Assembly (NCBI GenBank): GCA_015231405.1
Contig: JADGBR010000006.1
Span: 40,218-104,217, forward strand
Length of the DNA: 64,000 nt
Direction of reading: 5' to 3'
From: Candidatus Omnitrophota bacterium
GTDB taxonomy: Bacteria > Omnitrophota > Gorgyraeia > Tantalellales > Tantalellaceae
The notes below the pieces were generated by a model that did no database searches, was not told where the DNA came from, and was given only the letters and a program-made list of their open reading frames with translations. A program made the translations under genes and the position numbers. Positions 4,500 through 59,102 of the stretch are shown here, piece by piece. Each line of letters starts with the position of its first letter. Within the stretch, counting starts at the first letter, position 1.

Positions 4500-4502
4500 G
4501 TC

Positions 4503-8031: not shown

Positions 8032-8050
8032 ATAACTTGTCCTTACGTTT

Positions 8051-8107
8051 GACCATGGACCATGGACCATGGACCATAGACCATGGACTATAGACTATGG
8101 ACTATGG
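8051..8107. repeat. Tandem heptamer array (GGACCAT/AGACCAT/GGACTAT, about 8 units)
   Basis: Read directly: ggaccatggaccatggaccatagaccatggactatagactatggactatgg. Confidence 0.8.
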
Positions 8108-8111
8108 GCCT

Positions 8112-9482: not shown

Positions 9483-9519
9483 ATGGACCATGGACCATAG
9501 ACTATAGACCATGGACCTT
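9483..9519. repeat. Second tandem heptamer array of the same family (about 5 units), immediately 3' of era
   Basis: Read directly: atggaccatggaccatagactatagaccatggacc. Confidence 0.8.
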
Positions 9520-10328: not shown

Positions 10329-10369
10329 ACAAAACGGTCCCCCATGCTCCCTGCCCCATGCCCTTTGCC

Positions 10370-13186: not shown

Positions 13187-13263
13187 CTGCTCCGGTTACG
13201 AGATATCCATTTTATTACGTCCTACGTCCCCCATCCTACGTCCTACGGCAATATGTAAGCCCG

Positions 13264-25545: not shown

Positions 25546-25744
25546 GTTATCCTTTAGAATCCAGAATTCAGAATCCAGAATCCAGAATTCGTCATACCAG
25601 AACGGAAGCATATCATCAATTGCTTCATGGTATCTCTTCCAAATATCACATTAACGATCCATATTTTAAGCATTAAATACCTTTCACGCTCCGTCTTCCG
25701 TGATTCTGGCTTTGGGATCTTATCTTCATTATCCCTAACCAACA

Positions 25745-31611: not shown

Positions 31612-31760
31612 CCAGAATTCAGAAGACAGAAGACAGAAGACAGAACCCAGAATAGTAGTGTCGAGATATGATCCCCGAGAAGAGTGCATTACCCCCCCCC
31701 CTCAACCGTTTATTCTGTATTCTATATTCTGTATTCTGGATTCTGAATTCTGAATTCCTG
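31612..31760. repeat. Long imperfect palindrome built of CAGAAT/CAGAAG hexamer repeats around a C10 homopolymer (31692-31701)
   Basis: Left arm ccagaattcagaagacagaagacagaagacagaacccagaatag. Right arm tattctgtattctatattctgtattctggattctgaattctgaattcc. Confidence 0.7.
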
Positions 31761-32248: not shown

Positions 32249-35200
32249 TTAATTCGTCCTCAGATCCCTGGACCCGTCTGTCTGCACGGCGTAAGTGAAA
32301 GTCATCGTAACCATATCGTCGTCATTCATTCCGTCCTGATCGGCATTGACCGTGTCTATCCTCATTTTCGCGTAATAACCTTCCTGCGTTACTAAAAGAT
32401 AAACTTTGCCCGCGGTAGCCGGGCCATTGACTTCGTTCGTTATGTCCGGAGCGGTGGAGAGGCTGTCAAAAGTATAAGTCCCGGAAACATCCTGAATTTT
32501 AGCGTTTCCATATGTGAACAAGAGGTTCGGAAATTCGAGAACAAAATCTCCTACCGCGTCAGCCTGCGCCCCCGATGAAAAGAAAAACCCTCTGTCCATG
32601 TTGGAGGCCATCGGAAGGTCTACCGACGTTACCGTTCCTGTCCTTACGCTAAGTACCGAAGACACTCCTCCGGTTTCCTGTGTAGCGCCAGATCCGGGCT
32701 GCTCAGGGTTCCTCGTATCCCTGTCAACCCTGATAGCCTCGACGACGGCCTCGCCGAGTCCGCTGGACGAGGCTATTTCAGGAGAAAGCGTCGCGTATAT
32801 GAGATTGCCCTTAAGATTGTAGATCTTCATTTTACCGTCTTCCAGTAAAAATATCATTCGGGTCGAACCGCTTGTCCTCTGCTGCTGGCCAGTTTTCTTC
32901 GGTGTCTGGGTTTTCTGCCACCGTGTTTCGGCAATAAATAACGCGTTGTTCTTCTCTATACGGTCGATGAATATCGTAAGCCTTATATCGTCGAACATAT
33001 CAAAATCGAACCTGATCCCTTCTTCCAGAAATATCTTATTCCCCAGAAAATCCCTCGATATCAGAGAAGACACATTCGCGATATTTTTAGACTCGTAAGA
33101 ATCGGCTAATTCCTTAACGGCGTCCCTGATCAGCACGGTATGATCTATATCCCGGTAAACGAGCGTCTGTCCGTTCGAAAGGAGATCGAATACTTTTTCA
33201 TCGGACTCGAACTTAAGTTTGATCCGCGGAATGTACTGTTTTCCAGGGACAGGATGGAACGAATACCGGATTTGCCTGTCTACGGGTATTTCTTTAAATA
33301 CCGATCCGTCTTCCGATATAAGGACTGTCTTTATACCGTAAAGGTTATCGAGCCACGCGGTGATCTCTATAGTATTGTCGCGAAGTTCGCTCGAGGTAAG
33401 CACCATTTCGCCGGGAACATTGGGTATCGTGAGCGTGTTCACTCTCACGTCATACACCCTGTACCCGGACTTTTCAGCGTCTTCCTTCTCCCTTTTCTTC
33501 CTTTCTTCTTCCTCTTTCCTCTTTTCCTCATCGCGTTTAGCCGCGTATTCCGCGTCCATCCTGGCCTCATATATCTTCATCGACGCCTCTATAGCTTTAT
33601 TCGTCTCCGCGGAAAAGATCTTGTATATGGCCGGGGTCTTCCCTCCGTCAGGGGAGGCGTAGGCCTTAAGCCATTGGTCTAATATGGGCCGGTCGGCTTC
33701 TGCGTTGAGCGTGGAAGCGATAACGGCCCTTTTACCCATGGCTGTGACGTAATCGGAAGACGCGAACTCGTTACGGACTTTCAAGTTGATCTCGTCTATC
33801 TTAGGGAGAAAAGATATAAAGTCGTTGATCTCGTTCGCCACGCCGAAACTCGCGTTAGCTATCTCGGCGCATTTATTAAAAATATCCTCTCTTACCCTGG
33901 GATTCCCGTTCATGTCGACATCCCACAGGTCCTCGCCGTATTTATTCTCAGGGTTTATGACGCCTTGTTCGGGGTAGCCTTCAGCGATTACCCTCACCAG
34001 ACCGAGATCCGGATCGGAGTTAACTTTTTCCTCGAACTGCCAGCGGGTATTGAGAGCGAGCGCCGCGAGATGCCCCGCGCGCGAGGCGGGTTCACCCAAT
34101 ACCGCGAATTTCTTCCTTTCTTCTTCAAGAAAAGCTTTAACCTTAGCCCCATCGGCTCCGGAATCGAACATCTCGGCCACTTGCTTGCGTAGCTTAGCGA
34201 GATGCCGGTATGCGGAGGCGCTGTCTTCGAACCCGGCGGCTTTGGCCTCAACTATGACCGCCTTACCCTTATTTACGGCGAATATGGCCGCGTTCACCAC
34301 ATCGGCCGCGCCGGTAGAATATCTTTGAACGAATCCCCTGGCTTTTGATACCTTATTATCGAACTCAGAGCGCATAGCGGTGATATTCTTTTTATACACA
34401 TCATTCTCTTCCGGGATCCTCGCGATGATTTTATTTAAAGATATCGATTGAGATGAGGCTGAGGCGGTAAGATACTCCACATTGTAAGAGCCAGGGCTCA
34501 CTCCCAACCCCGCCAAAGCGTTCATAACAGGGGTCGCCTCCCCTTTAAGAGAAGAAACAAAATTGTCATATTCCACCGGATATCTCCGGATTACAGGAAG
34601 CAGATCGTCGTTAACCTTAATGATGACCCCGTAAAAATTCATTTCCTGAGTAAGCTCCTGGGGGCCCATGCCTCTTATGACCTGAGGAGCTAAAAGCTCA
34701 GGCAAGGCGTAGCTCGAGCTTTTTCCCTCAAGAGGATTATGGTTCCCACCCTTGAAGGAAGCCTTAGCTTCCTTGTTAAGTTCCGCGCCTATCTCCTCGA
34801 ACTTCTTTCGCCCGGCGGCTTCTATATTGTAGAGCGCTGTTTGATATGAAGCTATGAGCGCCTGCCGCTCCGCCTCATCTTTGACATGTGCCGGCGCAGG
34901 CGTAATATTAATTTTCCCTTTTTCTTTCCCGGCTGAATTGATCTCACCGTCTTTCTTTGCCGCCATCTCAATTTCAGCGGCTGATAACCTTTTCTTGAGC
35001 TCTTCCAGGCGTTTCCCCAGCCTATCGTCCTCTTCCGCTACACGGGGACGCTCGCTATCGATATCGGCTTTTGTCCTATCCAGATTTTTTCTGAGCTCGT
35101 ATATCTTTTTTTTGGCGTTCTCAATGGCTTCTAGGACATAATAGAACTTCCTATAAATAAGGCCCGTCTCTCCGAGATCGTCCGGGTTCTCCCCTTCTCT

Positions 35201-35737
35201 CATCACCTTGATCTTAAGATCGATGGCGTCCATGCTCAACGTTTTTTGGACTTCCGCGATCTCCGGAAGCAGCTTCTGGGCTCCTTCGCTCAGCCCCTGT
35301 ACGACTTTTTTGTAGGGGGAGAGCATACTGTCCTGCATCTGGTCCGACGCGTATTCGCAGGCGCAGGCGAGGATGATCAGCTTAATGGACTGCTGGGCGA
35401 AACCCAGCACAAGATTGACTTTCTGATACGTGTCAAACCCGAGCTTTATAGTGGATTTAATAAGGTTTTTCTGCAAGAGGTCCCTCATCCTCTTTTCGAG
35501 AGCGTCGAGCTCGTCATAGGCCTTGCCAAGGGACTCTACCATGCCAGGATAATTCTTCAGGAATTCATCCATACGGACAAGGGCGTCGTGGACTATCTTG
35601 TATTTCGCCTCGGTCTCGCGTATCTCGTTCTGGAGGTAATAAGCATCCTCCGCTGCGAACGCGTCAGGGGCTGTTCCCGGCATTGACGACAAAACCATAG
35701 AAAAGGACAAAATCGCTCTGACTGTTTTTCTGATCAT
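32249..35737 (-). CDS. Giant secreted paralog A: signal peptide, KE-rich coiled coil, conserved C-terminal module of about 350 aa including an NTF2-like domain
   Basis: 1162 aa. Signal peptide MIRKTVRAILSFSMVLSSMPGTAPDAFAAED. The C-terminal block (…LISRDFLGNKIFLEEGIRFDFDMFDDIRLTIFIDRIE…MIFLLEDGKMKIYNLKGNLIYATLSPEIASSSGL…) is shared with paralogs B and C. Confidence 0.7.
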   Translation of the reverse strand: MIRKTVRAILSFSMVLSSMPGTAPDAFAAEDAYYLQNEIRETEAKYKIVHDALVRMDEFLKNYPGMVESLGKAYDELDALEKRMRDLLQKNLIKSTIKLGFDTYQKVNLVLGFAQQSIKLIILACACEYASDQMQDSMLSPYKKVVQGLSEGAQKLLPEIAEVQKTLSMDAIDLKIKVMREGENPDDLGETGLIYRKFYYVLEAIENAKKKIYELRKNLDRTKADIDSERPRVAEEDDRLGKRLEELKKRLSAAEIEMAAKKDGEINSAGKEKGKINITPAPAHVKDEAERQALIASYQTALYNIEAAGRKKFEEIGAELNKEAKASFKGGNHNPLEGKSSSYALPELLAPQVIRGMGPQELTQEMNFYGVIIKVNDDLLPVIRRYPVEYDNFVSSLKGEATPVMNALAGLGVSPGSYNVEYLTASASSQSISLNKIIARIPEENDVYKKNITAMRSEFDNKVSKARGFVQRYSTGAADVVNAAIFAVNKGKAVIVEAKAAGFEDSASAYRHLAKLRKQVAEMFDSGADGAKVKAFLEEERKKFAVLGEPASRAGHLAALALNTRWQFEEKVNSDPDLGLVRVIAEGYPEQGVINPENKYGEDLWDVDMNGNPRVREDIFNKCAEIANASFGVANEINDFISFLPKIDEINLKVRNEFASSDYVTAMGKRAVIASTLNAEADRPILDQWLKAYASPDGGKTPAIYKIFSAETNKAIEASMKIYEARMDAEYAAKRDEEKRKEEEERKKREKEDAEKSGYRVYDVRVNTLTIPNVPGEMVLTSSELRDNTIEITAWLDNLYGIKTVLISEDGSVFKEIPVDRQIRYSFHPVPGKQYIPRIKLKFESDEKVFDLLSNGQTLVYRDIDHTVLIRDAVKELADSYESKNIANVSSLISRDFLGNKIFLEEGIRFDFDMFDDIRLTIFIDRIEKNNALFIAETRWQKTQTPKKTGQQQRTSGSTRMIFLLEDGKMKIYNLKGNLIYATLSPEIASSSGLGEAVVEAIRVDRDTRNPEQPGSGATQETGGVSSVLSVRTGTVTSVDLPMASNMDRGFFFSSGAQADAVGDFVLEFPNLLFTYGNAKIQDVSGTYTFDSLSTAPDITNEVNGPATAGKVYLLVTQEGYYAKMRIDTVNADQDGMNDDDMVTMTFTYAVQTDGSRDLRTN

Positions 35738-35799: not shown

Positions 35800-38700
35800 C
35801 TAAAAATTCCTCGACCCGTCGCGCTGGTACTTGTACCTGACTACCGTCGTGAACGGAAAGGCGGCCGCCGTCATGCTCGTTATCGATATGATCGCGTACT
35901 TCCCGTCGGGAAGCTGGAGCGCGTAAGTATGTCCCGTCGCCGCGTCAAGCCATCCTCCGGCATCATATCCTGAAGACGGCGCTTCGGTGACGCTGTCAAT
36001 AGATACCCCGCCGAGATCCACGATCCCTCCTGACGGATTTACCTTAATAAAAACGTCCTCTCTCCTGAAATCCGAGCTAAAAGCGAAAATATCCCTGGTT
36101 ACAGCGCTACACGCGAAAGTGTAGCCGTCGCAATCATGGAAACCGTATTGCGTAAGCGTTACCGACCCTGACTCCGACCTGGCACTCGTTCCGTCCGCGG
36201 TTTCGGTATCCGTATCGCCCTCAGTTGTCCCCGCTCCGGGCTGGACCGGGTCACGGTCGTCCCTGGCTGCCCTGACCTCATCGATGACCGTAACTCCTAA
36301 CCCGCTCGATTCGGCTATCTCCGGGGAAAGCGTCGCGTATATCAGGTTCCCTTTAAGGTTCTTTAGCTTCATCTTCCCGTCCTCGAACGCGAATATCATA
36401 GAAGTGTTCCCGGAAGTTTTCTGCTCCTGGCCGGTCTTTCTCGGACTTTGCGTTTTGTTCCATTTCGTATCTGCTATGAAATATGCCCCGCCCTTCTCTA
36501 TCCTGTTAATAAAAATGGCAAGCCTTATGCTGGAGAACATATCAAAATCAAACCTCACGCCTTCCTCAAGAAAAGTCCTGTTCCCGAGAAAATCATCGGA
36601 AACATATTCGCTGAAAGCCGATACGTTCTGCTGTTCGTATGCGTTGGCTATCGCCATGATAGAGTCCTGGACCAGCTTTACAAAATCAATATCCTTATAC
36701 GTAATGCTTTGGACATACGGGAAAAGCTCCTGGGTCACTTCTCCGGCTTCACCCATATCTATCCTTAAGATAAAGGTGTACTCGGCGTCAGGCGTCGGGG
36801 CAAAAGAATATTTCACATCTGCGCTATTCTGGATCTTCGTCCAGCTCCTGCCGCCATCCACTGAGATCTCGACGCCCCGTGATCCCGCGACTGTAGAAAG
36901 CTTCCCGGCGACCTCTATCTTACCGTTCTTGAGGTCCATTTTAGAAAGAACCACTGTTTGAGGCATGCTAGCCGCGTTGTATTTGTTAAGCGTCGCGCTC
37001 AGGACTTGTATGGCCTGCCGGCCGGCTTCATCCTCCGCTTCCTTCTTCTTTCTCTCCTCCTCTTCCTTCTTTTTCCTCGCCGCTTCTTCTTCCGCGGCTT
37101 GACGTTCCCGTTCCCATCGTTTTTCTTCATCTATTTTGTCCTGGCCGGACTTTTTGAGCTCATCCTCCACCTCTTTCTCCAGGGCCATCCATCCGCCTAA
37201 GGATTTCTCAATTGCGTCTGTCTTCGCGAACATGGAATATAGCCGGACGAAATGTGAAACATTCTCCTTCTGGAATTTCTCGAGCTGCTTGATCTTTTCC
37301 TGGACATTGTAGCTGTTCTTCTTAATATCGTCGAATTTCTGCTTCGCCTCGCCAAGATATTTATCGGCCAGTGCCGCCCTCTCGTCAAAAGTCTTTTTGA
37401 CAGTTTCGTAGGTCTCCTGGTACACCTTTATCCTGTCGGGTATGGTCAACCATTTATCAAGCGGAGGGTAGTAGGACTGGGCGAAATCGAATCTATACCT
37501 GATATTTGTCCCTATGCCTTTACGCAGGTTGTCCAGCTTAGAGACGAGATCGCTGTATTTCGCCCAGGCCTCTTTCATCTGTTCCAGGTACGCATACCCT
37601 CGCATCTTTTCGGGCAGGGTGTACATAAAAGCTGAGTTATCCGGCATAATGTACATATCGCTCTGCCTTCTTATTTCCTGTTCAAGCGTAAGATCAGAAA
37701 GGCGCAGCATGAACATATCCAGGGTGATATCGTAGTATATCCTGGCATACGCCGAGGCCACCTGGTCCGCGTGCTCTATCGTAAAAAGATCGCTTTCTCT
37801 CTTTGCAACGGCTGCTATGGCCTTATCCATTTCCTCGAGTATATCCTTTCTCTCCATCACCTTCGCCTGCGCCTCGGCGTCGTTATCTCCTCCCCACACC
37901 CTCGGGATACCCACGCTTTCGGCAGGAAGTATCTCCCCTCCCAGTTGCGCGTTATAGAACTGGCTTGTGGAAACGATATTTTCAAATCCCCACGACTGTT
38001 TACCGTCATATGGGATGAGCAGTCTTTTCGGCATTGAGCTCTCAAAACTTTTCGCGATGCTGATAGCGGACGCCGCGTATTGTTCGAATGCTTTTTTTTC
38101 TTTCGCGTAGAGTTCGGCCGCGGCTGACCTGTCTCCGGAAAGGTCCACTTTCATCTGTTGCACCTCTACAAGCTCCCGTGACGCGTCGCCGGGCATCTCG
38201 TATACGAGACCTTCCCGAGCGGCCATGTTCTCGGATATGATGGTGTAGAAATAGGCGGATCCCCATCCATCGGGAAAATTCAATTTGGTAAGGGCCTCCT
38301 GGGATGTCTCGCTGCCGGCTTTCCGATAGGCTTCCACGGCTTTATCGAGCTCTTCCCTGATCTTTTCGGCCTTTTCCCTCATATAAGCCCTCATCTTACT
38401 TCCCCGCTCGAGAGCTTCCGCGACAATGACCTGCTCTTCGGCGCATAGCACCTTGTAATCATTATAGAACTGCCCCTCGACTATACTGCCCCAGGCCCGA
38501 TTCATATAAGGCCCGCGCGCCGCATTGTACACATCGGATAACGCGTTACTCTGGGCGACAAGCGCGTCGTGTTCCGCTCTATTCCTGGCATTTTGGATCC
38601 TTGCCCAGATCGCGGCGAACTGAGGGTCATATTGTGCGGCGAGGGCCGCTAGGATCTCATTCGCCTTCCGTTTGCCGTCATCCATTTTCTTACTGGCCGC

Positions 38701-39966
38701 TTGAAGCGCCGCCTTCCTTTTCGACACGTAATCTTCATACATCCGTTCGATCGCCGCCGTATCATACCCCTCGATCCCGGATTCCTTGATCTCGGTGAAA
38801 GCCGTTTCTAAAGCGCTTAAAATTGAGCCATGATCGAACCCTTCATAAGGGAAAGACTGGACATATTTAGCCATCCTGCCGTTGTATTTATCTTCGTCCG
38901 ATTCCTCCGTCCGGACAAATGTCTCGGCATCCTGTTTTTTGGCGCCATTAATAAGGATATCAAATTCATCTATCATTTTTAGAGCCGGATCAGCTTCCTT
39001 CCTGGCCGCGTCGACGGCCGCGGTGACTCCGGCGGAAGCGCCCCTGGTTTCCTGCACAAGAGCGTCCAGTTTCGACCTCAATTCGTTCTCGATCTGTTTT
39101 TTCTCGAGGATATCGGCCTTCATGCGTGAAAGTTCGGCGATAATGGCGTTTTTCATATTGTCGCCTTCGTTATTTTTACCCTTCAAGTACCACCCGCCGT
39201 AAGCAAGCTGCTCGTCCCATTCCCGCTGAACGTAAGAGGCGATGTCAACGGTCTGGATCCATTCGACAAAGCCTCGGGGATTTTGTTGCGGGTCATGCCC
39301 CGCCAGAACGACCTTCATCTTTCCCTCGAGCGCGGAACTGAAGGCGTACTGAACGACATATTTGCCCAAAGCCTCTACCATCGACTGGGCCAGTTTATAC
39401 CATCCCCAGCCCGGCACGAAATATGTTATTATCTTTTCTCCCACATCCTTACCGAGAGATCTTAAGGCTTCTTCCGGACCGTCCTTTTTCCAGCTGGAAA
39501 TAAAATTATACGTCATCTGGACGCCCTCAAGACCGGCCTTAAAAGCGTTTACCTGGGTATCCAATTTTGCGTTAATATCGATATCGGCTGCCGACCACAA
39601 AGCCCCGACGTTCTTCCCTTCTATGATGGCTTTATGCATCATATCCGGGATCTGAGCCTTAAAAAGTTCCTCACGCAATTTTTTCTTTACATATTCCTCG
39701 AGCTTCTCCTTGGCCGCCTCTTTCAGCCGGTCGGAACTCTCTTCCCAGACTCGCTCTTTCCCTTTTTTGAGGATATAGGCGACTTTGGCTTTGTCGGTGG
39801 GGAGGCTGTTAAGTTCCGCGACGTCGTCGACAAAGTTAGTGAATTGTTTGATAAGTTCTTTAGATACCTTTTCCGTAGCCTCGTCCTCTGAGAAAGCCGG
39901 AGGGCACGCCGAAGTTATCGTGAAACAGAGAATGGTTATTGAGGCAAGTATCTTTTTTATGTTCAT
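35800..39966 (-). CDS. Giant secreted paralog B (1388 aa), same architecture
   Basis: Signal peptide MNIKKILASITILCFTITSA. KE-rich coiled coil (…EEEAARKKKEEEERKKKEAEDEA…). Conserved C-terminal module (…VSDDFLGNRTFLEEGVRFDFDMFSSIRLAIFINRIE…KLKNLKGNLIYATLSPEIAESSGL…). Confidence 0.7.
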   Translation of the reverse strand: MNIKKILASITILCFTITSACPPAFSEDEATEKVSKELIKQFTNFVDDVAELNSLPTDKAKVAYILKKGKERVWEESSDRLKEAAKEKLEEYVKKKLREELFKAQIPDMMHKAIIEGKNVGALWSAADIDINAKLDTQVNAFKAGLEGVQMTYNFISSWKKDGPEEALRSLGKDVGEKIITYFVPGWGWYKLAQSMVEALGKYVVQYAFSSALEGKMKVVLAGHDPQQNPRGFVEWIQTVDIASYVQREWDEQLAYGGWYLKGKNNEGDNMKNAIIAELSRMKADILEKKQIENELRSKLDALVQETRGASAGVTAAVDAARKEADPALKMIDEFDILINGAKKQDAETFVRTEESDEDKYNGRMAKYVQSFPYEGFDHGSILSALETAFTEIKESGIEGYDTAAIERMYEDYVSKRKAALQAASKKMDDGKRKANEILAALAAQYDPQFAAIWARIQNARNRAEHDALVAQSNALSDVYNAARGPYMNRAWGSIVEGQFYNDYKVLCAEEQVIVAEALERGSKMRAYMREKAEKIREELDKAVEAYRKAGSETSQEALTKLNFPDGWGSAYFYTIISENMAAREGLVYEMPGDASRELVEVQQMKVDLSGDRSAAAELYAKEKKAFEQYAASAISIAKSFESSMPKRLLIPYDGKQSWGFENIVSTSQFYNAQLGGEILPAESVGIPRVWGGDNDAEAQAKVMERKDILEEMDKAIAAVAKRESDLFTIEHADQVASAYARIYYDITLDMFMLRLSDLTLEQEIRRQSDMYIMPDNSAFMYTLPEKMRGYAYLEQMKEAWAKYSDLVSKLDNLRKGIGTNIRYRFDFAQSYYPPLDKWLTIPDRIKVYQETYETVKKTFDERAALADKYLGEAKQKFDDIKKNSYNVQEKIKQLEKFQKENVSHFVRLYSMFAKTDAIEKSLGGWMALEKEVEDELKKSGQDKIDEEKRWERERQAAEEEAARKKKEEEERKKKEAEDEAGRQAIQVLSATLNKYNAASMPQTVVLSKMDLKNGKIEVAGKLSTVAGSRGVEISVDGGRSWTKIQNSADVKYSFAPTPDAEYTFILRIDMGEAGEVTQELFPYVQSITYKDIDFVKLVQDSIMAIANAYEQQNVSAFSEYVSDDFLGNRTFLEEGVRFDFDMFSSIRLAIFINRIEKGGAYFIADTKWNKTQSPRKTGQEQKTSGNTSMIFAFEDGKMKLKNLKGNLIYATLSPEIAESSGLGVTVIDEVRAARDDRDPVQPGAGTTEGDTDTETADGTSARSESGSVTLTQYGFHDCDGYTFACSAVTRDIFAFSSDFRREDVFIKVNPSGGIVDLGGVSIDSVTEAPSSGYDAGGWLDAATGHTYALQLPDGKYAIISITSMTAAAFPFTTVVRYKYQRDGSRNF

Positions 39967-39994: not shown

Positions 39995-40510
39995 TCAAAA
40001 GGGGGAATTCCCTTTCACATCGTACAGCTTCCATTCCTCTCCCGACTTTTTAAACACGAAAAGACATTGCCCCCGGCTCTTACGCTGGCTTCCGGTGTCG
40101 AACGGCACGTCCTTCTTGTTCCAACTGAAAGAAACGGCGAGTTTGTCTCCTTTCGGAATAACCGTATTTATGAAATACTCTATGTCCAGGGGTCTTGCCG
40201 AATAAAATGAGTTCTCGACGCCGCTCACAAAAGACTGGCCGCCAGAGGGAAAATCATCGTCCACAATATCGGCGAAAGATCCCCTCGTGTACCCACGGTA
40301 AGAGTCGAAGATACGGGATAGAAGACTATCGGCTATCTCCCTTTCTTTTCCGGGAGCTATAACTTTCTGGGCTCTTCCCCTTTCGACCGTCGTTCCGGCC
40401 ATAGCCCACGCGTAAGATGTCAACGCCGTCAAAACCAGTAGCGACGCGAATACCCGGCAAAAACGATCAGAAATTCGAAACGAGCTTGGTGATAAACCTT
40501 GTTTCATCAT
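39995..40510 (-). CDS. Small secreted protein (171 aa) consisting of a stand-alone copy of the paralogs' conserved NTF2-like domain
   Basis: Signal peptide. The segment …DDDFPSGGQSFVSGVENSFYSARPLDIEYFINTVIPKGDKLAVSFSWNKK…GQCLFVFKKSGEEWKLYDVKGN aligns by pattern with RDFLGNKIFLEEGIRFDFDMF…IAETRWQKTQ…TRMIFLLEDGKMKIYNLKGN in the giant paralogs. Confidence 0.55.
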   Translation of the reverse strand: MMKQGLSPSSFRISDRFCRVFASLLVLTALTSYAWAMAGTTVERGRAQKVIAPGKEREIADSLLSRIFDSYRGYTRGSFADIVDDDFPSGGQSFVSGVENSFYSARPLDIEYFINTVIPKGDKLAVSFSWNKKDVPFDTGSQRKSRGQCLFVFKKSGEEWKLYDVKGNSPF

Positions 40511-42233
40511 AAGACTGCTCCTTGTCCTGCTGATTATAGTCGTTATGTTCCCCTCGAAAGACCAGACGCGTGCTCCTTTTCTTCTCCATGAGAAAATTCA
40601 TTTCGAAAAATGTCGTGTAATTAAAATAGTTCTGCATGGGCTGGTTGGAATCGCTGGAGTTCACGTTATAACCAAAATATAGCATATGGGCGCCATAGAT
40701 GTTGTACTGGCCCTGGAACCCTACCCCGGTGTTAAAATCCTCCTTAGGGTACTTTTTGGGGTCGTGATAATCCAGGTTCAAATACCCCGAAAGATACGCT
40801 CGGCGCTTCAATATGTACTGTTCCCGCCCGAGATTCGTGCCGAGGCGGTAAAAGTAGTCGGAGTTAGATTTGACATATTTGTCGATGAAACCCCTAAATT
40901 CGCCGAAAATCCCGTAGCTTGTCTTATCGTCCAGATTATCGTTGACCGCAACGCCAGGCGTGTAAGTGACCGCGCGCAAGGTGTTAAAAACGTCGTCAGA
41001 CCTTCGTTCCTGCACGTTCGTGTAAGCCCTGACGCTGAACGAAGGATCGCTTTCGTACGGACGCATATTGAGCGTCATGTATTTTTCGTCGTATATGGTG
41101 CGTTTTTTCAATGTGCTTCCGGTAAGATGGTTCCAGTAATAATTCTCTGTGACGGTCGCCCTCATCTTTTTAGTGATATCATAATCAAGAGTTCCCTGGT
41201 GCTGCATTTTATCGGGCATAGCTGAACCCGCGTCGGTATAAAATTTAGGCTGAACGTAGTAGAAAAGATAAGTGCCGGTAAAGGGTCCGTATTTCAAACG
41301 GGGCCTGGCCCTGAACGCGTTGCCGTGCTTGTCGTCCGAATACGCCGCTTTTCTTTCGTCAAGGTTGTGATAACTCGTACCCAACTCATAGATCAGTGAG
41401 AAGTACTCTTTCGTGGCTATCTCGCCGTCCACGCTGACCACCGTATTGCTCATGTCCGGGATAGGCGTCCCGAGCCCTGTGGAATCGCTGGTAGCTCTGT
41501 CGTCACGGTTTGTAACGGCCTGGGTCCCTATCCTGAAAGTTTTGAACGCTTCCTCTCCTTCCTCCTTAAAAAGAAAGATATCGGTCTTCCCTCCGTACAC
41601 ATTTCTCCAGAATGCGCTCATATCGTTATCAGGGCTCTGACTGCGCGCGGCGACCCCTTGCAAATGCACGCTGTCGTATTCTTTTATCTCAGCGTTGAAC
41701 CCTTCGAGTGAGTTACCCAGAGTGAACTGGCTGAAGTCCCCGTAGAAATCTCCGAAGAGGAGCATATTGTCGGGGTTGGATATCTGGGTAGTAAGCTGTT
41801 TGACCCGGAGGTCCTTCCTCCTTTCGATACGACGGTCATCGGTCCTCCGGAGGAACAGCTGGCTTTCAAAACTGTAGTCTGAGATCAATTTTTCATAGCT
41901 ATTGATATTGACCTCGGTATTCTGATAAACTCCCCTTCTGAGAAATGTTTTCGTTCCGTTGCCTCCGGTAGCGTTAAAATTTATCTCTTCCATAACGCTC
42001 CCGGTTATCATTCCGGAACGGTCAGGGCCATAGTTGCCGTAATTTTTAAAATCGAGAAGATCATCCACCCTATCCTCAAGGGTGAAGGTCTTATTTACAT
42101 CAGGTGCTCCTCCGGCTGTAGAACCCTGTCCGAGATAATAAACCTCCGCCGCTTCAAGTGTTAACGGCCGGCAGAAAATAACTATTCCCGCCAGAACGAA
42201 CGACACAGCTACATCTCTCGACCTTTTTCCCAT
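40467..42233 (-). CDS. Outer-membrane beta-barrel protein (porin/transporter-like), hypothetical
   Basis: 588 aa. Signal peptide. Alternating aromatic/hydrophilic beta-strand pattern throughout. The C-terminus ends in the aromatic signature …KLVSNF. Confidence 0.6.
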   Translation of the reverse strand: MGKRSRDVAVSFVLAGIVIFCRPLTLEAAEVYYLGQGSTAGGAPDVNKTFTLEDRVDDLLDFKNYGNYGPDRSGMITGSVMEEINFNATGGNGTKTFLRRGVYQNTEVNINSYEKLISDYSFESQLFLRRTDDRRIERRKDLRVKQLTTQISNPDNMLLFGDFYGDFSQFTLGNSLEGFNAEIKEYDSVHLQGVAARSQSPDNDMSAFWRNVYGGKTDIFLFKEEGEEAFKTFRIGTQAVTNRDDRATSDSTGLGTPIPDMSNTVVSVDGEIATKEYFSLIYELGTSYHNLDERKAAYSDDKHGNAFRARPRLKYGPFTGTYLFYYVQPKFYTDAGSAMPDKMQHQGTLDYDITKKMRATVTENYYWNHLTGSTLKKRTIYDEKYMTLNMRPYESDPSFSVRAYTNVQERRSDDVFNTLRAVTYTPGVAVNDNLDDKTSYGIFGEFRGFIDKYVKSNSDYFYRLGTNLGREQYILKRRAYLSGYLNLDYHDPKKYPKEDFNTGVGFQGQYNIYGAHMLYFGYNVNSSDSNQPMQNYFNYTTFFEMNFLMEKKRSTRLVFRGEHNDYNQQDKEQSYDETRFITKLVSNF

Positions 42234-42282: not shown

Positions 42283-45200
42283 TTATTGCGTCCTAACGTT
42301 CCTCGTCCCATCGGTCTGGAGCGCGTACTGGAATTCCAGCGTATCAGGCGGACCGAGAGTCCGGTTGGTCACCGTCATCTTCCCGTATTTTGCATCTGCG
42401 GTCTTAAAAGCGTAAACTTTTCCCACATCCATATTGTCAACAAAAGGGGCGTATCCAGATGACGGGGCTTCATTGAGCGCCCCGAACGTGGAAGTTGTAA
42501 TTTCCTGTATCTCGGACGCGCCTACGGCGATAAATCGCATCCCCATAACATAATTGAAATCACCGGTATCCACGTCAGCCTGAGCCCCGGACGAGAAACT
42601 AAATCCCTTTACATTGCTAGGAGGGGGACCGGGTTCGGATGTGACAGACCCTGTCCGGACGGATATCACGGCGGTCGAAGTCGTCCCTCCGGCCTCAACG
42701 GTCTCGCTGGATCCGGGCTGTACGGGATCACGGGTTTCCTGAGCCTGCTCTATCTGCTCGACGACGGCTTGCGCCAACCCGCTGGATTCGGCTATTTCCG
42801 GGGAAAGAGTAGCGTATATTAGGTTCCCTTTAAGATTGTAGATCTTCATCCTTCCGTCCTCCAGAACAAAGATCATCTCAGTTTTTCCTGTCGTCCTTTG
42901 CTGTTCCCCGGTCTGTCTCGGTATCTGGGTCTTGTTCCACGTTGTCTCGGCAACGTATTGCCCGTTACGTATCTCTATCCTGTTGATGAATATGGTGAGC
43001 CTTATTTCAGTGAACATATCGAAGTCGAACCTCACTCCTTCTTCCAGAAAAGTCCGGTTGCCTATGAAATCCCTCGATATATTCTCTTCGAATAAAGAAA
43101 CGTTCTGGGCTTCATAGGCGTCGGCTATCTTCTTAGCGGCGTCGACGAGAAGCTGGCTATAGTCGATGTTCCTATATATCAACCCGTTGATGTTCTCGAA
43201 CGGCTCTAGAGTGACCTCATCGAAATCCACGGTCTTGATCTTGAAAACGACCTGATACAATTGCTCGACCGCCGGCATGAAGGAAAAGGATAACATCTGG
43301 TTCTTCTGGCATTCGTTCCATATCCGTCCGCCGTCGGTCGAAACGAGTATCTTATCTATCCTGTCCAGCGTGTTCAGCCTGGCTGTAACTTCGATAGCGT
43401 TATTCTTCAGGTCAGTATTCGTGAGGATAACGTCACCGGAAGCGTTTTTTAGGCTCACTGTATTTACGCGCGCGTCATAAAGCTGATAAAAAGAAAACCC
43501 TTCACCCTCCCCCACTGGAACGGTTTGAGAGAAAGACGCCGTTTTCTGTCCGGGCTGGCCTCCCTGTCCAGGCTGTCCCCCTTGCCCCGGCTGCCCGCCC
43601 TGCCCTGGCTGCCCACCCTGCCCTGGTTGTCCTCCCTGTCCTGGTTGTCCTCCCTGTCCTGGTTGTCCACCCTGTCCCGGTTGTCCACCCTGTCCCGGCT
43701 GGCCTCCCTGTCCAGGCTGGCCACCCTGCCCCGGTTGTCCGCCGGGCCCGCTTGTCTTAGTGGTTTTAAGAAACTCCGTGCGCTCTTCCAGGATCTTATC
43801 GAGTTCATTCATTATGGAGACATATCTTTTGCCCAGCGAATGATCGAAAGGAGCCGGGTTTTTCTCATAGGCTTTGTCCACGGCATATGGCTGGCTCGTA
43901 TCACCGCTTGAAATTATGGCACCGGCTATTGCCCCAATGACCGGCATCATCTGCTGCATGAACTCGATATCACTCGCGTCATATTTGACCTTCGGAACTT
44001 CCTCCTCGAACTTCGCGACCGTGCTAGCCTGGATCACGATCTCCGTATCGCCCGAAGGAGCGAAAAAATTGTCTTCCGCGGCGTATTCAACTCCGGGCAA
44101 GGTAAGGATCTTCTCGAGTACCTCGTTAACTCCGGAGGCGCTATTCTTAATGAACTTGTAGCCCGGATATTGCTGCCACATAGTTCTTATCTCGTTGGCG
44201 AAAGTCCCCGTATCGTTCTTAGTCATATAGTGTTTGTAGGGTTTATCCATCAGTATCAAATTGCCGTCTTTCTTGAAAAGGATCTCGTACTCCCCATAGC
44301 TGAACTCCCTAAGAACTCCTTTTTCCTTCTGGTCCCGGAAGAACTCCTCTACCGCCGCTTTTTTAGAGTTGATCCAGTCCGCCCCTTCCTGACGTTTCGC
44401 CATTTCCTCGTCGGCATATTTACGTATCTCGTCGAACCTGGCCTGTGACCTGTTGATGAGATCCTGAAGTTTCTCTATGGCATTGCCCAGGTCCGCCATC
44501 TCTTCCATTTGCCGGTCGAAATTTTCGGAAACACCGAGCACCTTCATTTCGGTGAGTTCACTGTCCGACGGTTTAGGTATATCCTTAAGTTCCGCCGCGG
44601 CTCTCTGCCAATCCGGGTAGGAACCCTGGACATTCGCCATTCGGTACCCACCTTCCCTGCCTATCTCCCCGGCGAAATCGAAGTTTACAGTAGCGGCCTT
44701 CTGGTTCATTTCAGAATATAGCTCGGGAACGCTTTTCGGGTCGTTAAAAGTACCTACTCCCCCATACTCGTAAGATTTCGTTTTTTCTACCGCCGCGTTA
44801 ATGGCGTTCATGTTATCCGAAAAATCTTCATCGGCCTGGGTCCTCGTCCCTGTCCCCAGGATACTATTGACGGGAATTATTTTGGCTGACGCCTGCACAA
44901 GCCCTGTATATTCATACCATTGCCTTTGCCTTACCCTCTTAAGGTCGTTAAAAGTATTGACGAGCCCTGATATCTCGGAATTGGTCTTAACGATCACGGC
45001 TTCGGTCGTATTCCTGAGCGTCTGGCTAACGTCCCCGGCCAGATAATATGCGCTCTGAAGAATGGATAACTCGCCGCCGAGGGCGCTAGTCTCCTTTCTT
45101 ATCGCTTCCATCCGCGTTGAGTTGCCGCTCATTGCCGAGACAAGGCTGCTCCTTAAGGCTTCGTCATAGGAATCGTAATACTGTCTCTGCAATTTCGCGT

Positions 45201-46809
45201 TATCCGCCTCACGGTTCTTATATTCCTCGTTTAGCGCCCCTATCCTCTCATTAATTGGACCTTGCGCGTTCTCATACGCTTTCGCGAGCTTTTTAGGAAG
45301 TTCTTCGTTATAGTAGCCGTTCATCCCTTTCCTGGCGGCGCCCTCCCATTCGGATAGGAGGGTATACGCTTCGGAAAATTTGCCCTTATTCAAAGCTTCC
45401 AGCACCTTATCGTAAAGATCATCACCAGAAGTTCCCCAGTCCTTGAACGGCGCGAGAACTGGAACGAATGCGGCGTTATAATAGCCCATCTCGGGAGCGC
45501 TTATCGTTTTCTCTTCTTCCTCATAAACGGTCGCGGGATCGGTTATGACAGCTTTTTCTTTAGCTCCGAGGGCTTTTTCATAATCCTTTTCCAGCGCCCA
45601 CCACAGCTTCAGCTCGGACTTTAGCGACGCGGAAAGATCGGCCTCTCCGATAAGATTGGAAGCGCTGGACGCGGTCACAAGCGAACTTTTCCAGGTATTA
45701 ATGGCGTTCTGAACTTCGTTCATCCTCTTAAGGTTGGCGATAAGCGTCCCGGCCCCGACGCGCGCGGCCGGACTTTTCGCGAGGAGCTCCTTGTATTTAG
45801 GCAGCTGTTTACGGTATTCTTTTTTGGCGTTGAATTCGCTGAGAAGTTGCGGGATATTGTTCGAAAAGGCTCTTAAACGGTAGGCGAACTTCTTGAATTC
45901 AGCCATCTCATGCCCGGCCCGCTGCTCCGCCCACCGCTCGGTCACCTGGAGGTTAACGTCCTTAAGGAGTTTCATTATCCATGTGCGCGCCTTGTTCCGA
46001 TATTCCACGGAAAGCGCCATAGTCTCGGCGCTTTCGGTCGTGTCCTCTCCCGAGCCTGCCGACATCAGGTCCCTGGCCCAATCCCCCCAACTTTGTTCGG
46101 GCCATTCCTCCCCGAGAACGGTCGTTACATAAGATTTGACCATATCGCGGACCTCGGCGTTGGTCACGATGTATTTGTTAAAGAAATAGTCCGCGGTCTT
46201 TTCGTTGACATCTATCAGCTTAGGAGAGCCGCCCTTGGGATCGGACGTACCCAAAAGACGCCTGTCGTTCTCAACTTTATTGTAAAGCGTCTCTACCTGG
46301 AGCTCGGCGCCCGACTCTACTACCAGCTTATGGGACTCGTAGGCCATCTTAACGGCGGCCCACGCCACTTTTATAACGGGATGATCTATTTCCCCGACGA
46401 CAACGTCCACTGTCAGGAAAAGTGCTTCGTCATATTTCCCTTCTCCGAGCATGGTACCGAGCTTTTGGACGTTCTCTATGATATCCAGGATCTTGTCTAT
46501 TTTGTCCTTGATCTGCTTAGTGTATGCGTCGGTATCGTCGATCTGCCCTTTCCATAGTTTCTCGTATTCAAAGAGAGATTCCCATCCAAGCTCGTTGACT
46601 TTGTCCTGGCCCAGGGCCTTCAATCCTTCCGTCGCTCCGTCCTCCGACATCATGGCTTCCGCCACATCAAGGCCGAGACTTACGCCGGTACCCAATTCAT
46701 CCGGGTCGGTAAATTTCCCGCCCTTGGACCCTTTTTCCTCGGCACTCGCGATATTGAAGTTGAGGACCATTAATGACAACAGGATGAAAACTGATATTTT
46801 ATTAGCCAT
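42283..46809 (-). CDS. Giant secreted paralog C (1508 aa) with an internal GGQPGQ tandem repeat
   Basis: Signal peptide MANKISVFILLSLMVLNFNIASA. Conserved C-terminal module (…ISRDFIGNRTFLEEGVRFDFDMFTEIRLTIFINRIE…KIYNLKGNLIYATLSPEIAESSGL…). Confidence 0.7.
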   Translation of the reverse strand: MANKISVFILLSLMVLNFNIASAEEKGSKGGKFTDPDELGTGVSLGLDVAEAMMSEDGATEGLKALGQDKVNELGWESLFEYEKLWKGQIDDTDAYTKQIKDKIDKILDIIENVQKLGTMLGEGKYDEALFLTVDVVVGEIDHPVIKVAWAAVKMAYESHKLVVESGAELQVETLYNKVENDRRLLGTSDPKGGSPKLIDVNEKTADYFFNKYIVTNAEVRDMVKSYVTTVLGEEWPEQSWGDWARDLMSAGSGEDTTESAETMALSVEYRNKARTWIMKLLKDVNLQVTERWAEQRAGHEMAEFKKFAYRLRAFSNNIPQLLSEFNAKKEYRKQLPKYKELLAKSPAARVGAGTLIANLKRMNEVQNAINTWKSSLVTASSASNLIGEADLSASLKSELKLWWALEKDYEKALGAKEKAVITDPATVYEEEEKTISAPEMGYYNAAFVPVLAPFKDWGTSGDDLYDKVLEALNKGKFSEAYTLLSEWEGAARKGMNGYYNEELPKKLAKAYENAQGPINERIGALNEEYKNREADNAKLQRQYYDSYDEALRSSLVSAMSGNSTRMEAIRKETSALGGELSILQSAYYLAGDVSQTLRNTTEAVIVKTNSEISGLVNTFNDLKRVRQRQWYEYTGLVQASAKIIPVNSILGTGTRTQADEDFSDNMNAINAAVEKTKSYEYGGVGTFNDPKSVPELYSEMNQKAATVNFDFAGEIGREGGYRMANVQGSYPDWQRAAAELKDIPKPSDSELTEMKVLGVSENFDRQMEEMADLGNAIEKLQDLINRSQARFDEIRKYADEEMAKRQEGADWINSKKAAVEEFFRDQKEKGVLREFSYGEYEILFKKDGNLILMDKPYKHYMTKNDTGTFANEIRTMWQQYPGYKFIKNSASGVNEVLEKILTLPGVEYAAEDNFFAPSGDTEIVIQASTVAKFEEEVPKVKYDASDIEFMQQMMPVIGAIAGAIISSGDTSQPYAVDKAYEKNPAPFDHSLGKRYVSIMNELDKILEERTEFLKTTKTSGPGGQPGQGGQPGQGGQPGQGGQPGQGGQPGQGGQPGQGGQPGQGGQPGQGGQPGQGGQPGQGGQPGQKTASFSQTVPVGEGEGFSFYQLYDARVNTVSLKNASGDVILTNTDLKNNAIEVTARLNTLDRIDKILVSTDGGRIWNECQKNQMLSFSFMPAVEQLYQVVFKIKTVDFDEVTLEPFENINGLIYRNIDYSQLLVDAAKKIADAYEAQNVSLFEENISRDFIGNRTFLEEGVRFDFDMFTEIRLTIFINRIEIRNGQYVAETTWNKTQIPRQTGEQQRTTGKTEMIFVLEDGRMKIYNLKGNLIYATLSPEIAESSGLAQAVVEQIEQAQETRDPVQPGSSETVEAGGTTSTAVISVRTGSVTSEPGPPPSNVKGFSFSSGAQADVDTGDFNYVMGMRFIAVGASEIQEITTSTFGALNEAPSSGYAPFVDNMDVGKVYAFKTADAKYGKMTVTNRTLGPPDTLEFQYALQTDGTRNVRTQ
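43549..43756 (-). repeat. In-frame 18-bp tandem repeat encoding (GGQPGQ), about 11 copies, within paralog C
   Basis: DNA shows near-identical cctggctgcccaccctgc-type units. The protein reads SGPGGQPGQGGQPGQ…GGQPGQK. Confidence 0.85.
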
Positions 46810-47028: not shown

Positions 47029-48693
47029 TTGACTTCCACCTCCTCAATCCCTATCATAGTACCCACTATGAAGAACAAAAACTTGATCTCCCTCTTGATG
47101 CTCTTGTCTGTCTCTTCGTTCCTCTTCCTTTTCAAACTCGGAGCTATGCCTCTAACTGATCCGGACGAGACTTTCTATGCCGAAACAGCGAAAGAAATGC
47201 TTACCGCTAACGACTGGCTTACGCCTAAGATATTCGGGGAACCACAATTCGAAAAGCCGGTTTTCTATTACTGGACAATAATGGCGAGTTACAAATTTTT
47301 CGGCGTGAACGAGTTCTCGGCCAGGTTGCCTTCGGCCCTTTTCGGCATCCTCGGTATAATAGGTATTTACACTCTGGGTGTCATGCTCTCTACCCCACTC
47401 GGAGGATTATTGTCCGGACTAATAGCGTGCACGTCCATCTACTATCTTGGACTGGCAAGGGGATGCGTGACGGATATGGTCCTGACCGTATTCATCCTGT
47501 TCTCGCTCGTTTTTTTCCTTAAAGGGTGGTCCGAAAAAAAGAGATATTATTTCCTTTTATCTTCCGCGTCGATGGCTCTGGCTGTCCTGACAAAAGGACC
47601 AATCGGCCTTTTCCTCCCGGGATTGATACTGATCCTGTTCATCACCCTGGAAAATAAATGGAAAGACATCGGCAGGATCCCTTTCCTATCAGGAACGGCT
47701 GTTTTTGTGGTCATATGCCTACCCTGGTACCTGACCATGATAGATCTGCACGGCAAGGTATTTATCGGTGAATTTTTCGGGTTCCATAACGTCACGCGGT
47801 TCTTGAAGCCGGAGCATAAGATAGGTTCGTCCCCGTTCTTTTATTTTCCGATAGTGTTGGGAGGGATACTTCCCTGGACGCCGTTCCTTTTAGCCGGGAT
47901 ATGGCGTTCGTTCTTCGGGAAGGAACCTATCATTGAAAGATCCGGCCGCACTCTGTTCACGATATGGTTTTTGACCGTGTTCCTTTTTTTCTCATTTTCC
48001 AGCACAAAACTCCTGACTTACATTTCCCCTCTTTTTCCCGTATTGGCGGTAATTACGGGAATATTCTGGGAAAAATTTATTACAGGGAAGACCGGGGGGT
48101 CGGAAGAAAAGGCATTTATCATCCCGGGCTTAGTCCTTCTTGTTATCGCCTCGATACCCGGGTTCTTAGTGGGACGCCATATTGTCCTGGCTAAATGCCC
48201 GGAAGCGCTGGCGTCTGTAACTCTCGGCTCGGCGATCCTTTTTTCGGGGATACTCCTGGCGCTCTTATTTTCAATATTCGGAAAAAGGCGGCTTTCTTTC
48301 ATTTCCTTGTTCCTTGGCGTATTGGTCTTATCCCTGCCGGCCTTTACCTACATCATGCCGATCATCGGAGCGTCGGAATCCAGCGCGGCACTGGCCGGAA
48401 CAGCCCTTAGATTATCCGGTCCAGGCGAACCCATAGGGGGAGAATCCGACAGAAGAAGAGGGATAGCTTTTTATACCGGCAGGGTGGATGTCCCGGATAT
48501 CCATACATACGGCGGACTTATCGCCTTTTTCCCCAGGAAAGAAAGGGTCTGGGGGATCGTACAGAAAAAACACTACGAACAACTCGCGGGTTACATGAAA
48601 GGCCAATATTTCGAGGTGATCAGTTCTTCCGGGAAATACGTCCTTGTCACGAACAAGCCTCTCCTCACTTCTCCCGAAGAGACCTCAAAGTGA
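47029..48693 (+). CDS. Glycosyltransferase family 39 (ArnT / PMT_2-like) membrane protein; undecaprenyl- or dolichyl-phosphate sugar transferase-like
   Basis: Has the DPDETFY (DE-motif) loop after TM1 and multiple TM helices. The likely start is the internal MKNKNLISLL at about 47068. Confidence 0.7.
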   Translation: MTSTSSIPIIVPTMKNKNLISLLMLLSVSSFLFLFKLGAMPLTDPDETFYAETAKEMLTANDWLTPKIFGEPQFEKPVFYYWTIMASYKFFGVNEFSARLPSALFGILGIIGIYTLGVMLSTPLGGLLSGLIACTSIYYLGLARGCVTDMVLTVFILFSLVFFLKGWSEKKRYYFLLSSASMALAVLTKGPIGLFLPGLILILFITLENKWKDIGRIPFLSGTAVFVVICLPWYLTMIDLHGKVFIGEFFGFHNVTRFLKPEHKIGSSPFFYFPIVLGGILPWTPFLLAGIWRSFFGKEPIIERSGRTLFTIWFLTVFLFFSFSSTKLLTYISPLFPVLAVITGIFWEKFITGKTGGSEEKAFIIPGLVLLVIASIPGFLVGRHIVLAKCPEALASVTLGSAILFSGILLALLFSIFGKRRLSFISLFLGVLVLSLPAFTYIMPIIGASESSAALAGTALRLSGPGEPIGGESDRRRGIAFYTGRVDVPDIHTYGGLIAFFPRKERVWGIVQKKHYEQLAGYMKGQYFEVISSSGKYVLVTNKPLLTSPEETSK

Positions 48694-52645: not shown

Positions 52646-52650
52646 ATAAC

Positions 52651-52718
52651 AGCTATCAGCTTTCAGCTTTAACGGATGTCTAACCACCTATAGCAGAAGG
52701 CTGATGGCTGAAAGCTAG
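52651..52718. repeat. AGCTTTCAGC-family palindrome between rpsI and tRNA-Leu
   Basis: The pair agctatcagctttcagcttt … ggctgatggctgaaagctag. Confidence 0.6.
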
Positions 52719-54851: not shown

Positions 54852-54943
54852 GCTTTCAGCTATAAGCTTTCAGCTTTATTTGTAGGGCTAGTGATCTTTA
54901 CATTAAAAAGCTGAAAGCTGAAGACTGACAGCTGAAAGCTAAA
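54852..54943. repeat. AGCTTTCAGC-family long palindrome between asd and truA
   Basis: The pair gctttcagctataagctttcagcttt … aaagctgaaagctgaagactgacagctgaaagc. Confidence 0.65.
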
Positions 54944-58894: not shown

Positions 58895-59080
58895 TTACCG
58901 CTCCTTATTTGAAATATCAAAAGCACATTGTGAGAAAGAAGTTTACCAAATTTGGGAAGTAAAATCAATGGGTTATTTCAGGCGGGAACGAGGATCAACA
59001 ACATCCCGCCTGCCCTCCGACGAAGTCCTCCGAAGCAAAATAATATAAAATGGGTATGCGTAGGAGGAAGCCAAATAATA

Positions 59081-59102
59081 TAAAATAGTTTGGCGAAGGA
59101 GG
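59081..59102. repeat. Solo copy (inverted orientation) of the CCGCCTTCGCCAAACTATTTT-family motif, preceded by a direct repeat aaataatataaaat(g/a)g
   Basis: Read directly: aaaatagtttggcgaaggaggg. Confidence 0.5.

Follow-up and report, generated by a model that had tools for sequence, protein, structure and literature searches.

A codon-diverged (GGQPGQ)11 repeat as a probable interdomain spacer in a large, putatively exported protein of the Omnitrophota

The repeat array of paralog C

The stretch of DNA analysed here (the window) comprises 64,000 nucleotides of a Candidatus Omnitrophota genome assembly (GCA_015231405.1, contig JADGBR010000006.1, positions 40,218 to 104,217), and carries three paralogous genes for large proteins, referred to as A, B and C. 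The element of interest is a tandem array of eleven 18-bp units within paralog C, which is encoded on the minus strand at 42283–46809 and is 1508 amino acids (aa) long. The open reading frame (ORF) and its translation, comparison with homologs and a model of the N-terminal part divide the protein into a signal peptide, a conserved all-helical N-terminal domain, a variable middle, a low-complexity spacer and a C-terminal module. The array belongs to the spacer, and its most probable role, though one that we hold with some reserve, is that of an uncharged, non-globular and selectively maintained tether of defined length joining the helical body to the module.

A single strong array stands out in the output of Tandem Repeats Finder, at 43546–43740, with a period of 18, 10.8 copies, 85% matches and a score of 194. 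Together with the translation, a table of the units and pattern matches, this places the complete array of 11 x 18 bp at 43546–43743 on the minus strand, more than 3 kb within the ORF, as an in-frame tandem repeat of an exported protein. The in-frame translation is a perfect (GGQPGQ)11, corresponding to residues 1023–1088. All 11 matches of a degenerate coding pattern (GGNGGNCARCCNGGNCAR) to the window lie inside the array, and 100 shuffles give none. The array is real, in frame and well past chance expectation. The initial annotation, made from the letters of the window, had described an in-frame (GGQPGQ)n array of about 11 x 18 bp at 43549–43756; the array itself is borne out by Tandem Repeats Finder and by translation, and the coordinates are roughly right, but they begin 3 nt late and run 13 nt too far. 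Additional Tandem Repeats Finder rows with periods of 36 and 54 describe one tract together with the 18-bp array; as candidate higher-order repeats they were dropped, since a third-position lag analysis gives them no support. ORFs that cross the array in other frames (43464–43808 on the minus strand and 43525–43911 on the plus strand) were dismissed as stop-free by-products of a GC-rich repeat.

When parsed into triplets, the array is part of an unbroken Gly-X-Y tract of 23 triplets, GPG + (GQP-GQG)x10 + GQP-GQK, which covers residues 1021–1089 (43543–43749, minus strand). The full spacer, delimited by the low-confidence region of an AlphaFold2 model, extends over residues 1021–1105 (43495–43749, minus strand) and consists of the repeat and the segment KTASFSQTVPVGEGEGF. 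Between the end of the repeat and the conserved C-terminal module, which begins near residue 1106, there are 17 residues (1089–1105). Canonical G-quadruplex motifs (G3+ N1-7, four times) occur on the coding (minus) strand in units 8–10 of the array, at 43577–43623, one of only four such sites in the window. They are probably a by-product of the CAG-GGN-GGG codon junctions.

Codon divergence and history of the array

At the nucleotide level all eleven units are distinct. Their mean pairwise identity is 81% (range 67–94%) with zero identical pairs, which does not agree with an initial description of them as near-perfect 18-bp DNA repeats. Every difference between units falls at a third codon position: the eleven units agree at all 12 first and second positions and vary at all six third positions. 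Measured against the majority unit (GGT GGA CAG CCG GGA CAG), 29 of 66 third positions differ as opposed to 0 of 132 first and second positions. The probability of observing zero first- and second-position changes at the third-position rate is ~7e-34, and a rough upper bound on omega is ~0.03. Pairwise identity at third positions is 0.43, compared with 0.42 for random draws from the codon usage of this genome (p = 0.38). The peptide sequence of the repeat is under very strong purifying selection, while its synonymous sites have drifted or were selected apart.

Some trace of the history of the array is still visible at third positions, where neighbouring units are more alike than distant ones (0.55, p ~0.02). 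The central units 4–7 (43618–43689, minus strand) are related by one nucleotide change per step, each being 17/18 identical to the next (unit identity matrix; permutation tests, p ~0.005). The longest exact repeat in the array and its 100-nt flanks, 29 nt in length and found at 43622 and 43640, also lies within these units. Units 4–7 are the youngest and most slippage-prone part of the array and the sole place where slippage is plausible. The codons of the array are skewed toward those ending in A, with GGA making up 52% in the array as against 19% genome-wide (p = 3e-5). Both this skew and the chain of units 4–7 fit an ancestral unit near GGA GGA CAA CCA GGA CAG. The array originated by tandem duplication, which is mostly old. 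The codon scrambling and the 29-nt limit on exact repeats therefore indicate an old duplication, strong purifying selection and little substrate for slippage, and the earlier expectation that the repeats expand and contract readily is not upheld for copies so scrambled.

Predicted structure of paralog C

The C-terminal module (42286–43494, minus strand) was delimited by BLAST, AlphaFold2, Foldseek and a profile. It is ~400 aa in length, is common to paralogs A, B and C at 39–49% identity (BLAST), and is predicted to contain a beta-sandwich, an NTF2-like domain, helices, a hinge and a terminal beta-domain. An AlphaFold2 model of residues 994–1508, based on 19 aligned sequences, has a mean pLDDT (predicted local distance difference test) of 78 and shows, in order, a helix, the disordered spacer, the beta-sandwich, an alpha+beta domain, two helices, a short hinge and the terminal beta-domain. 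The 85 residues of the spacer (residues 28–112 of the modelled fragment) have a pLDDT of 30–37 and are without secondary structure, and the flanks are confidently folded, with the module reaching 80–95. The Gly/Pro/Gln-rich linker that had been proposed directly upstream of the conserved module is thus recovered in the model as a predicted non-globular segment. The alpha+beta domain matches the NTF2-like PDB entries 3soy, 3rob, 3hx8 and 3b7c (Foldseek probability 1.0, TMt 0.68–0.77, root-mean-square deviation 1.8–2.5 A), and this likeness of predicted fold places the central domain of the module in the NTF2-like superfamily. At the sequence level, NTF2-like support consists only of a weak DUF4440 match for E171, a small protein encoded in the same cluster and described below.

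At the other end of the protein, the conserved helical domain covers approximately residues 40–430 (45520–46692, minus strand; alignments, AlphaFold2 and Foldseek). The N-terminal 430 residues are modelled as all-helical with a pLDDT of ~70, and a Foldseek search against the PDB identified no fold relative of this domain (best E = 0.1). The protein begins with a signal-peptide-like sequence (MANKISVFILLSLMVLNFNIASA), recognized by inspection.

Homologs and family organization

Among 5.8 billion protein clusters there are 24 homologs of paralog C, the best with 42% identity. Genome and metagenome scans yielded 61 more loci from Omnitrophota, Nitrospirota, Desulfobacterota, Planctomycetota, Halanaerobiales, Elusimicrobiota, Campylobacterota and Geobacter. 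The closest relative in these clusters, the GTDB species genomes and the JGI metagenomes is 42–45% identical and carries no such repeat, and the motif is absent from 62 related loci. A peptide of three repeat units was not found in 2.9 million viral contigs, and among the 5.8 billion protein clusters the repeat peptide recovered only one unrelated small protein with a 12-residue unit. The (GGQPGQ) motif is essentially unique, although in kind it is a familiar feature: a spacer of low complexity, built of in-frame tandem repeats, that formally follows a GXY pattern. A related organism is represented by short contigs without an ortholog of C, including a PurH fragment (P0143) with 91% identity; exact-sequence look-ups of C, of LeuB, of a 100%-identical PurH entry and of D588, the product of the gene next to C, returned no contigs.

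The organization of the family differs between phyla. Elusimicrobiota, Halanaerobium, Campylobacterota, Geobacter and Nitrospiraceae encode the module as a separate protein of 425–470 aa, which has its own signal peptide and the sequence 'AKWWIFG' and whose gene lies just upstream of that for a protein corresponding to the N-terminal part of C (the N-domain protein). In Omnitrophota, Desulfocurvus and others the two are fused. This comparison covers the loci L003, L010, L012, L016, L018, L020–L023, L025, L039–L043 and L047–L059. Because module and N-domain are separate, adjacent proteins elsewhere, the repeat of C sits exactly at the gene fusion/fission junction of two partner polypeptides. 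The split version is present in the cultured Halanaerobium congolense DSM 11287 (L016, NZ_SOEF01000012.1; also L042 and L043) as a 471-aa module protein and a 1308-aa N-domain protein. An exhaustive search of 1.84 billion cluster representatives with a spacer-free profile of the module recovers 639 proteins at E <= 1e-3, of which 108 reach E <= 1e-30. In some Omnitrophota homologs the last beta-domain of the module is replaced by another C-terminal domain ('...VTSPNGGESW...TWTSSG...'), and several loci contain two tandem full-length paralogs; examples come from the homologs P0008, P0010 and P0012 and the loci L002 and L005. Because of such replacements and tandem copies, the family can be said to diversify by domain swapping and duplication.

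The 80 residues that precede the module are of low complexity in all 82 fused members examined. Most of these spacers are rich in E/R/K/Q/A and are probably helical, and about ten are irregular and G/P/S/Q-rich (P0149, P0001, P0152, P0155 and others). Paralog C is the only one of the 82 with a regular tandem repeat as its spacer, and its longest Gly-X-Y run, at 23 triplets, compares with 7 in the next member. Paralogs A and B, noted at the outset as lacking the repeat, indeed contain no GGQPGQ; however, both carry an E/R/K-rich low-complexity spacer at the same position (...RDEEKRKEEEERKKREKEDAEK... and ...EEAARKKKEEEERKKKEAEDE..., respectively), so that they lack the motif and not the spacer.

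Measured as the number of residues between the invariant anchors Y996 and N1116 (C numbering), spacer length is 61–74 in 15 charged-spacer homologs, 82 in the G/P-rich P0001 and 119 in paralog C. Related pairs of homologs have identical or nearly identical spacer lengths, and in P0148, an 81.5%-identical ortholog of A in a related organism, the length is unchanged while several residues have changed. These observations suggest that spacer length is under selection. The chemistry of the spacer appears to have been replaced several times while its length appears constrained. A flexible Gly-rich chain would have to exceed the length of a stiff helix for an equal span, which would fit the longer G/P-rich spacers of C and P0001.

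The gene cluster

The genes of the cluster are all on the minus strand, with D588 and E171 between paralogs C and B. Paralog A (32249–35737; MBF0216230.1, HQL30_04465) encodes 1162 aa and has its E/R/K-rich spacer at 33470–33535, and paralog B (35800–39966; MBF0216231.1, HQL30_04470) encodes 1388 aa with the corresponding segment at 37015–37131; both were identified by BLAST and by exact match. D588 (40467–42233; HQL30_04480) is a 588-aa protein with a signal peptide and a C-terminal ...SNF, and was recognized as a conserved partner gene from the loci of the family and its sequence features. E171 (39995–40510) is a small exported protein of 171 aa that resembles the NTF2-like part of the module in BLAST comparisons with the modules of A, B and C. 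By inspection, all five proteins (A, B, C, D588 and E171) have signal-peptide-like N-termini. None of the five has a significant match in Pfam or NCBIfam, and sequence and profile searches of the PDB with the cluster proteins returned nothing convincing. Promoter and terminator scans around the cluster gave counts not above those of shuffled sequence.

When the 36 family loci covered by 9 kb of sequence or more are compared, conservation is limited to two gene families, that of the large protein and module and that of D588, the latter being present in 33. Homologs of D588 begin with a signal peptide, are rich in Y/N/S/D/G and end in an aromatic residue (...SNF, ...IQF or ...LCW), which suggests that D588 is a putative outer-membrane beta-barrel. 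Profile searches identified no relative of D588 in Pfam, NCBIfam or the PDB, and so lend the barrel idea no support. If E171 is taken to begin at the first start codon of its ORF, it shares 44 nt with the 3' end of D588. E171 is probably real, because in locus L062 a gene of 159 aa fills the same slot after a D588-like gene; its true start may lie further downstream. BLAST showed no similarity between E171 and the C-termini of short-form homologs.

The exact sequence of paralog C is absent from a collection of 15 billion proteins, in which A, B, D588 and PurH (MBF0216213.1, an exact match to the PurH of the window) are present as singletons from one NCBI metagenome-assembled genome (MAG). The record of C may be annotated otherwise, for example as a pseudogene or with another start. 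Divergent from paralog C, at 47029–48693 on the plus strand, is a gene for a PMT_2/ArnT-like GT-C glycosyltransferase, which is not conserved beside the family in the other loci. That it acts together with the family, for instance by glycosylating the exported proteins, is only speculation.

Function of the spacer

We favour as probable the reading in which (GGQPGQ)11, which with its flanks amounts to 85 residues, links, as a tether, the 400-aa, three-domain module to the N-terminal body of a large protein exported by the Sec pathway. Body and module would be functional partners, which elsewhere are separate, adjacent and secreted, and are encoded beside the gene for a putative outer-membrane protein. 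Every fused member would need a low-complexity spacer at the junction, for which most would use a charged, probably helical segment. In the lineage of C the spacer would have arisen from an 18-bp unit that was duplicated in tandem, and the peptide would then have been kept constant while synonymous sites drifted or were selected apart. Such codon divergence would remove long exact repeats and stabilise the array against slippage and recombination, so that the array would act as a length-defined flexible or extended tether and not as a mutational switch. The position, composition and predicted disorder of the spacer are seen directly in the comparisons and the model above; the mechanics of a tether we infer. 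Among known systems, the spacer of C comes close to the low-complexity linkers found where genes have been fused, such as E/R/K-rich single alpha-helices and disordered Gly/Pro/Ser-rich segments, in its position and its predicted non-globular character. It differs in being longer than the family norm of 61–82 residues and in being a perfectly periodic hexapeptide, and it is unusual for eleven units to show no residue variation despite diverged codons.

Several points weigh against a passive tether of fixed length. The near-identity of units 4–7 implies that some duplication is relatively recent, and residual length instability is possible. The model of the spacer is that of a monomer, to which oligomers such as a triple helix are invisible. 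Both the surface location of paralog C and the beta-barrel nature of D588 are deduced from sequence features alone. That none of the 66 residues has changed points to a role in structure or recognition that is more specific than flexible tethering, because an entropic linker normally tolerates substitutions, as do the irregular G/P linkers of P0001, P0152 and P0155.

The alternative that survives best is a length-polymorphic variable-number tandem repeat, in which copy number would vary among strains or cells by slipped-strand mispairing or unequal recombination and thereby tune the length of the spacer. The existence of the array shows that duplication occurred, and both the 17/18 identity of units 4–7, with their 29-nt exact repeat, and the greater similarity of adjacent units (p ~0.02) speak for this reading. 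The NANP repeats of the Plasmodium circumsporozoite protein are length-variable despite codon-variant units. A bacterial precedent is Legionella Lcl, which has 11–18 GXY units among isolates, with functional consequences (PMC6460258). However, the divergence of units of which none are identical greatly cuts the substrate for slippage, spacer length is tightly kept in related homolog pairs and in the ortholog of A, and no relative in the collections searched carries the motif. Because the unit is six codons, slippage could alter length only and could never switch the protein on or off. Variation in length is, in our estimation, unlikely. The contingency loci of Neisseria, Haemophilus and Campylobacter likewise place a tandem repeat within the gene of an exported, possibly surface protein, and the initial annotation had raised this possibility for C. 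Those loci, however, are perfect tracts of short units that shift the reading frame or promoter spacing, whereas the array of C is imperfect, intragenic and not in a promoter, and its 18-nt in-frame unit has no effect on frame; a classical contingency locus is excluded. The array thus provides a useful negative, in that a conspicuous in-frame repeat in a secreted protein is not necessarily hypermutable. The combination of scrambled third positions and unchanged residues is a simple diagnostic, drawn from sequence only, for telling old peptide repeats under selection from young ones prone to slippage.

A second alternative is a collagen-like stalk, in which the 23 Gly-X-Y triplets of three chains would form a rigid triple-helical rod of ~20 nm that trimerises the protein, as in Scl1/Scl2, BclA and Lcl. 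The run GPG(GQPGQG)n, with Gly at every third residue over 69 residues, reaches the number of triplets (~20 or more) expected of such a structure, Pfam Collagen (PF01391) aligns over positions 1–59 of its 60, and there are weak matches to SclA and to collagen VI and C1q stalks, those in the PDB being marginal. Conservation of residues over diverged synonymous sites also suits a structural repeat better than a random coil. As in Lcl (PMC6460258), a signal peptide is followed by a GXY repeat and a C-terminal domain, and with Scl1/Scl2 and BclA too the protein shares export and a central in-frame repeat with Gly at every third residue, forming a stalk or spacer before a folded C-terminal domain. 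The likeness to collagen put forward at first is nevertheless formal only. The match to Pfam Collagen reaches 11.9 bits, where the cutoff is 27.2, and that to NCBIfam adhesin_SclA 17.2, where it is 400. The composition, in which every second triplet has Gly at Y, Pro accounts for only one residue in six (always at Y) and charged residues are absent, is unfavourable, since reliance on salt bridges is reported for bacterial collagens free of hydroxyproline, Scl2 among them (PMC11923368, citing Mohs 2007). The periodicity itself is weak evidence, as 12 of the 20 ways of arranging three Gly in a hexapeptide put two of them three residues apart. The units are also codon-scrambled where those of the known stalks are near-identical, and the homologs of C use non-collagen spacers, with at most 7 consecutive GXY triplets and, in most, charged helices instead. 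Because these homologs are without the GXY pattern, trimerisation through the spacer would not be family-wide. A collagen-like stalk for C is accordingly rated as quite unlikely.

A further reading, to which we give only a small probability, is that the spacer is ordered and assembles sequence-specifically, for example as a charge-free, Gln-rich triple helix or a regular beta-spiral, and is the stalk of an undescribed three-part system of the cell envelope. The parts of such a system could be the putative barrel of the D588 family, the beta-sandwich/NTF2/beta module and the giant helical protein, fused or split according to phylum. If this were true, the conservation of 66 residues over diverged codons would reflect constraints of assembly.

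The repeat might also be an elastomeric beta-turn or beta-spiral spring, convergent with and not homologous to the PGQGQQ of wheat high-molecular-weight glutenin or the GPGQQ and GPGGX of spider silk. Read as PGQGGQ, the unit is one position off the glutenin hexapeptide consensus, PGQGQQ, and its composition and order are nearly identical to those of the known elastomers. Glutenin_hmw (PF03157; 15.6 bits, E = 0.006) is the only Pfam match to the repeat in a scan of the full-length protein, and both strict periodicity and residue conservation would matter to a regular spiral. The match, however, is well below its threshold of 50 bits and is driven by composition, the context is bacterial, and the 66 aa of the eleven units are short beside known elastomeric domains, all of which makes an elastic spring highly improbable. 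Collapse, expansion or chimeric joining of the array during assembly can be put aside as extremely improbable; the source is a short-read MAG and the exact protein is missing from a collection that holds its neighbours A, B and D588, but the tract is unambiguously resolved by assembler k-mers of at least 31, the reading frame runs unbroken through all 1508 codons, and homologs match the sequence on either side.

Whichever role the spacer has, the comparisons define an uncharacterised cluster, consisting of a D588-like putative outer-membrane protein, the module and a large helical protein, that is rare but occurs in many phyla with clear fusion and fission. The cultured carrier Halanaerobium congolense DSM 11287 would permit experiments on it.

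Other features of the window

The window is a segment of a bacterial chromosome that also encodes MnmE, Era, PurH, UvrD, glycogen phosphorylase, an RND efflux system, LeuB/LeuC, Asd and TruA. Many tandem arrays with a 7-bp unit (4–8 copies) occur at its gene boundaries and in its intergenic gaps, at 4498–4528, 8049–8109, 9483–9519, 10338–10363, 25556–25590, 31620–31645, 31709–31757, 52647–52672 and 54852–54877. Tandem Repeats Finder adds further examples at 2975–3006, 3045–3075, 13216–13247 and 54907–54940. Certain heptamers recur, such as GACCATG/ATGGACC on both sides of the Era gene and TACGTCC with its reverse complement at four sites, and an inverted pair of CAGCTTT arrays lies between TruA and Asd. 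These arrays resemble the heptamer STRR (short tandemly repeated repetitive) sequences of cyanobacteria.

Near the end of the window, a gene on the minus strand (59114–63481) encodes a protein of 1455 aa that matches MutS domain V (E = 4.5e-42) and, weakly, a STAND-NTPase, and that would thus be an unusually large MutS-like protein. An AT-rich direct repeat (35 bp x 2, 59032–59102) is located just downstream of its stop codon.

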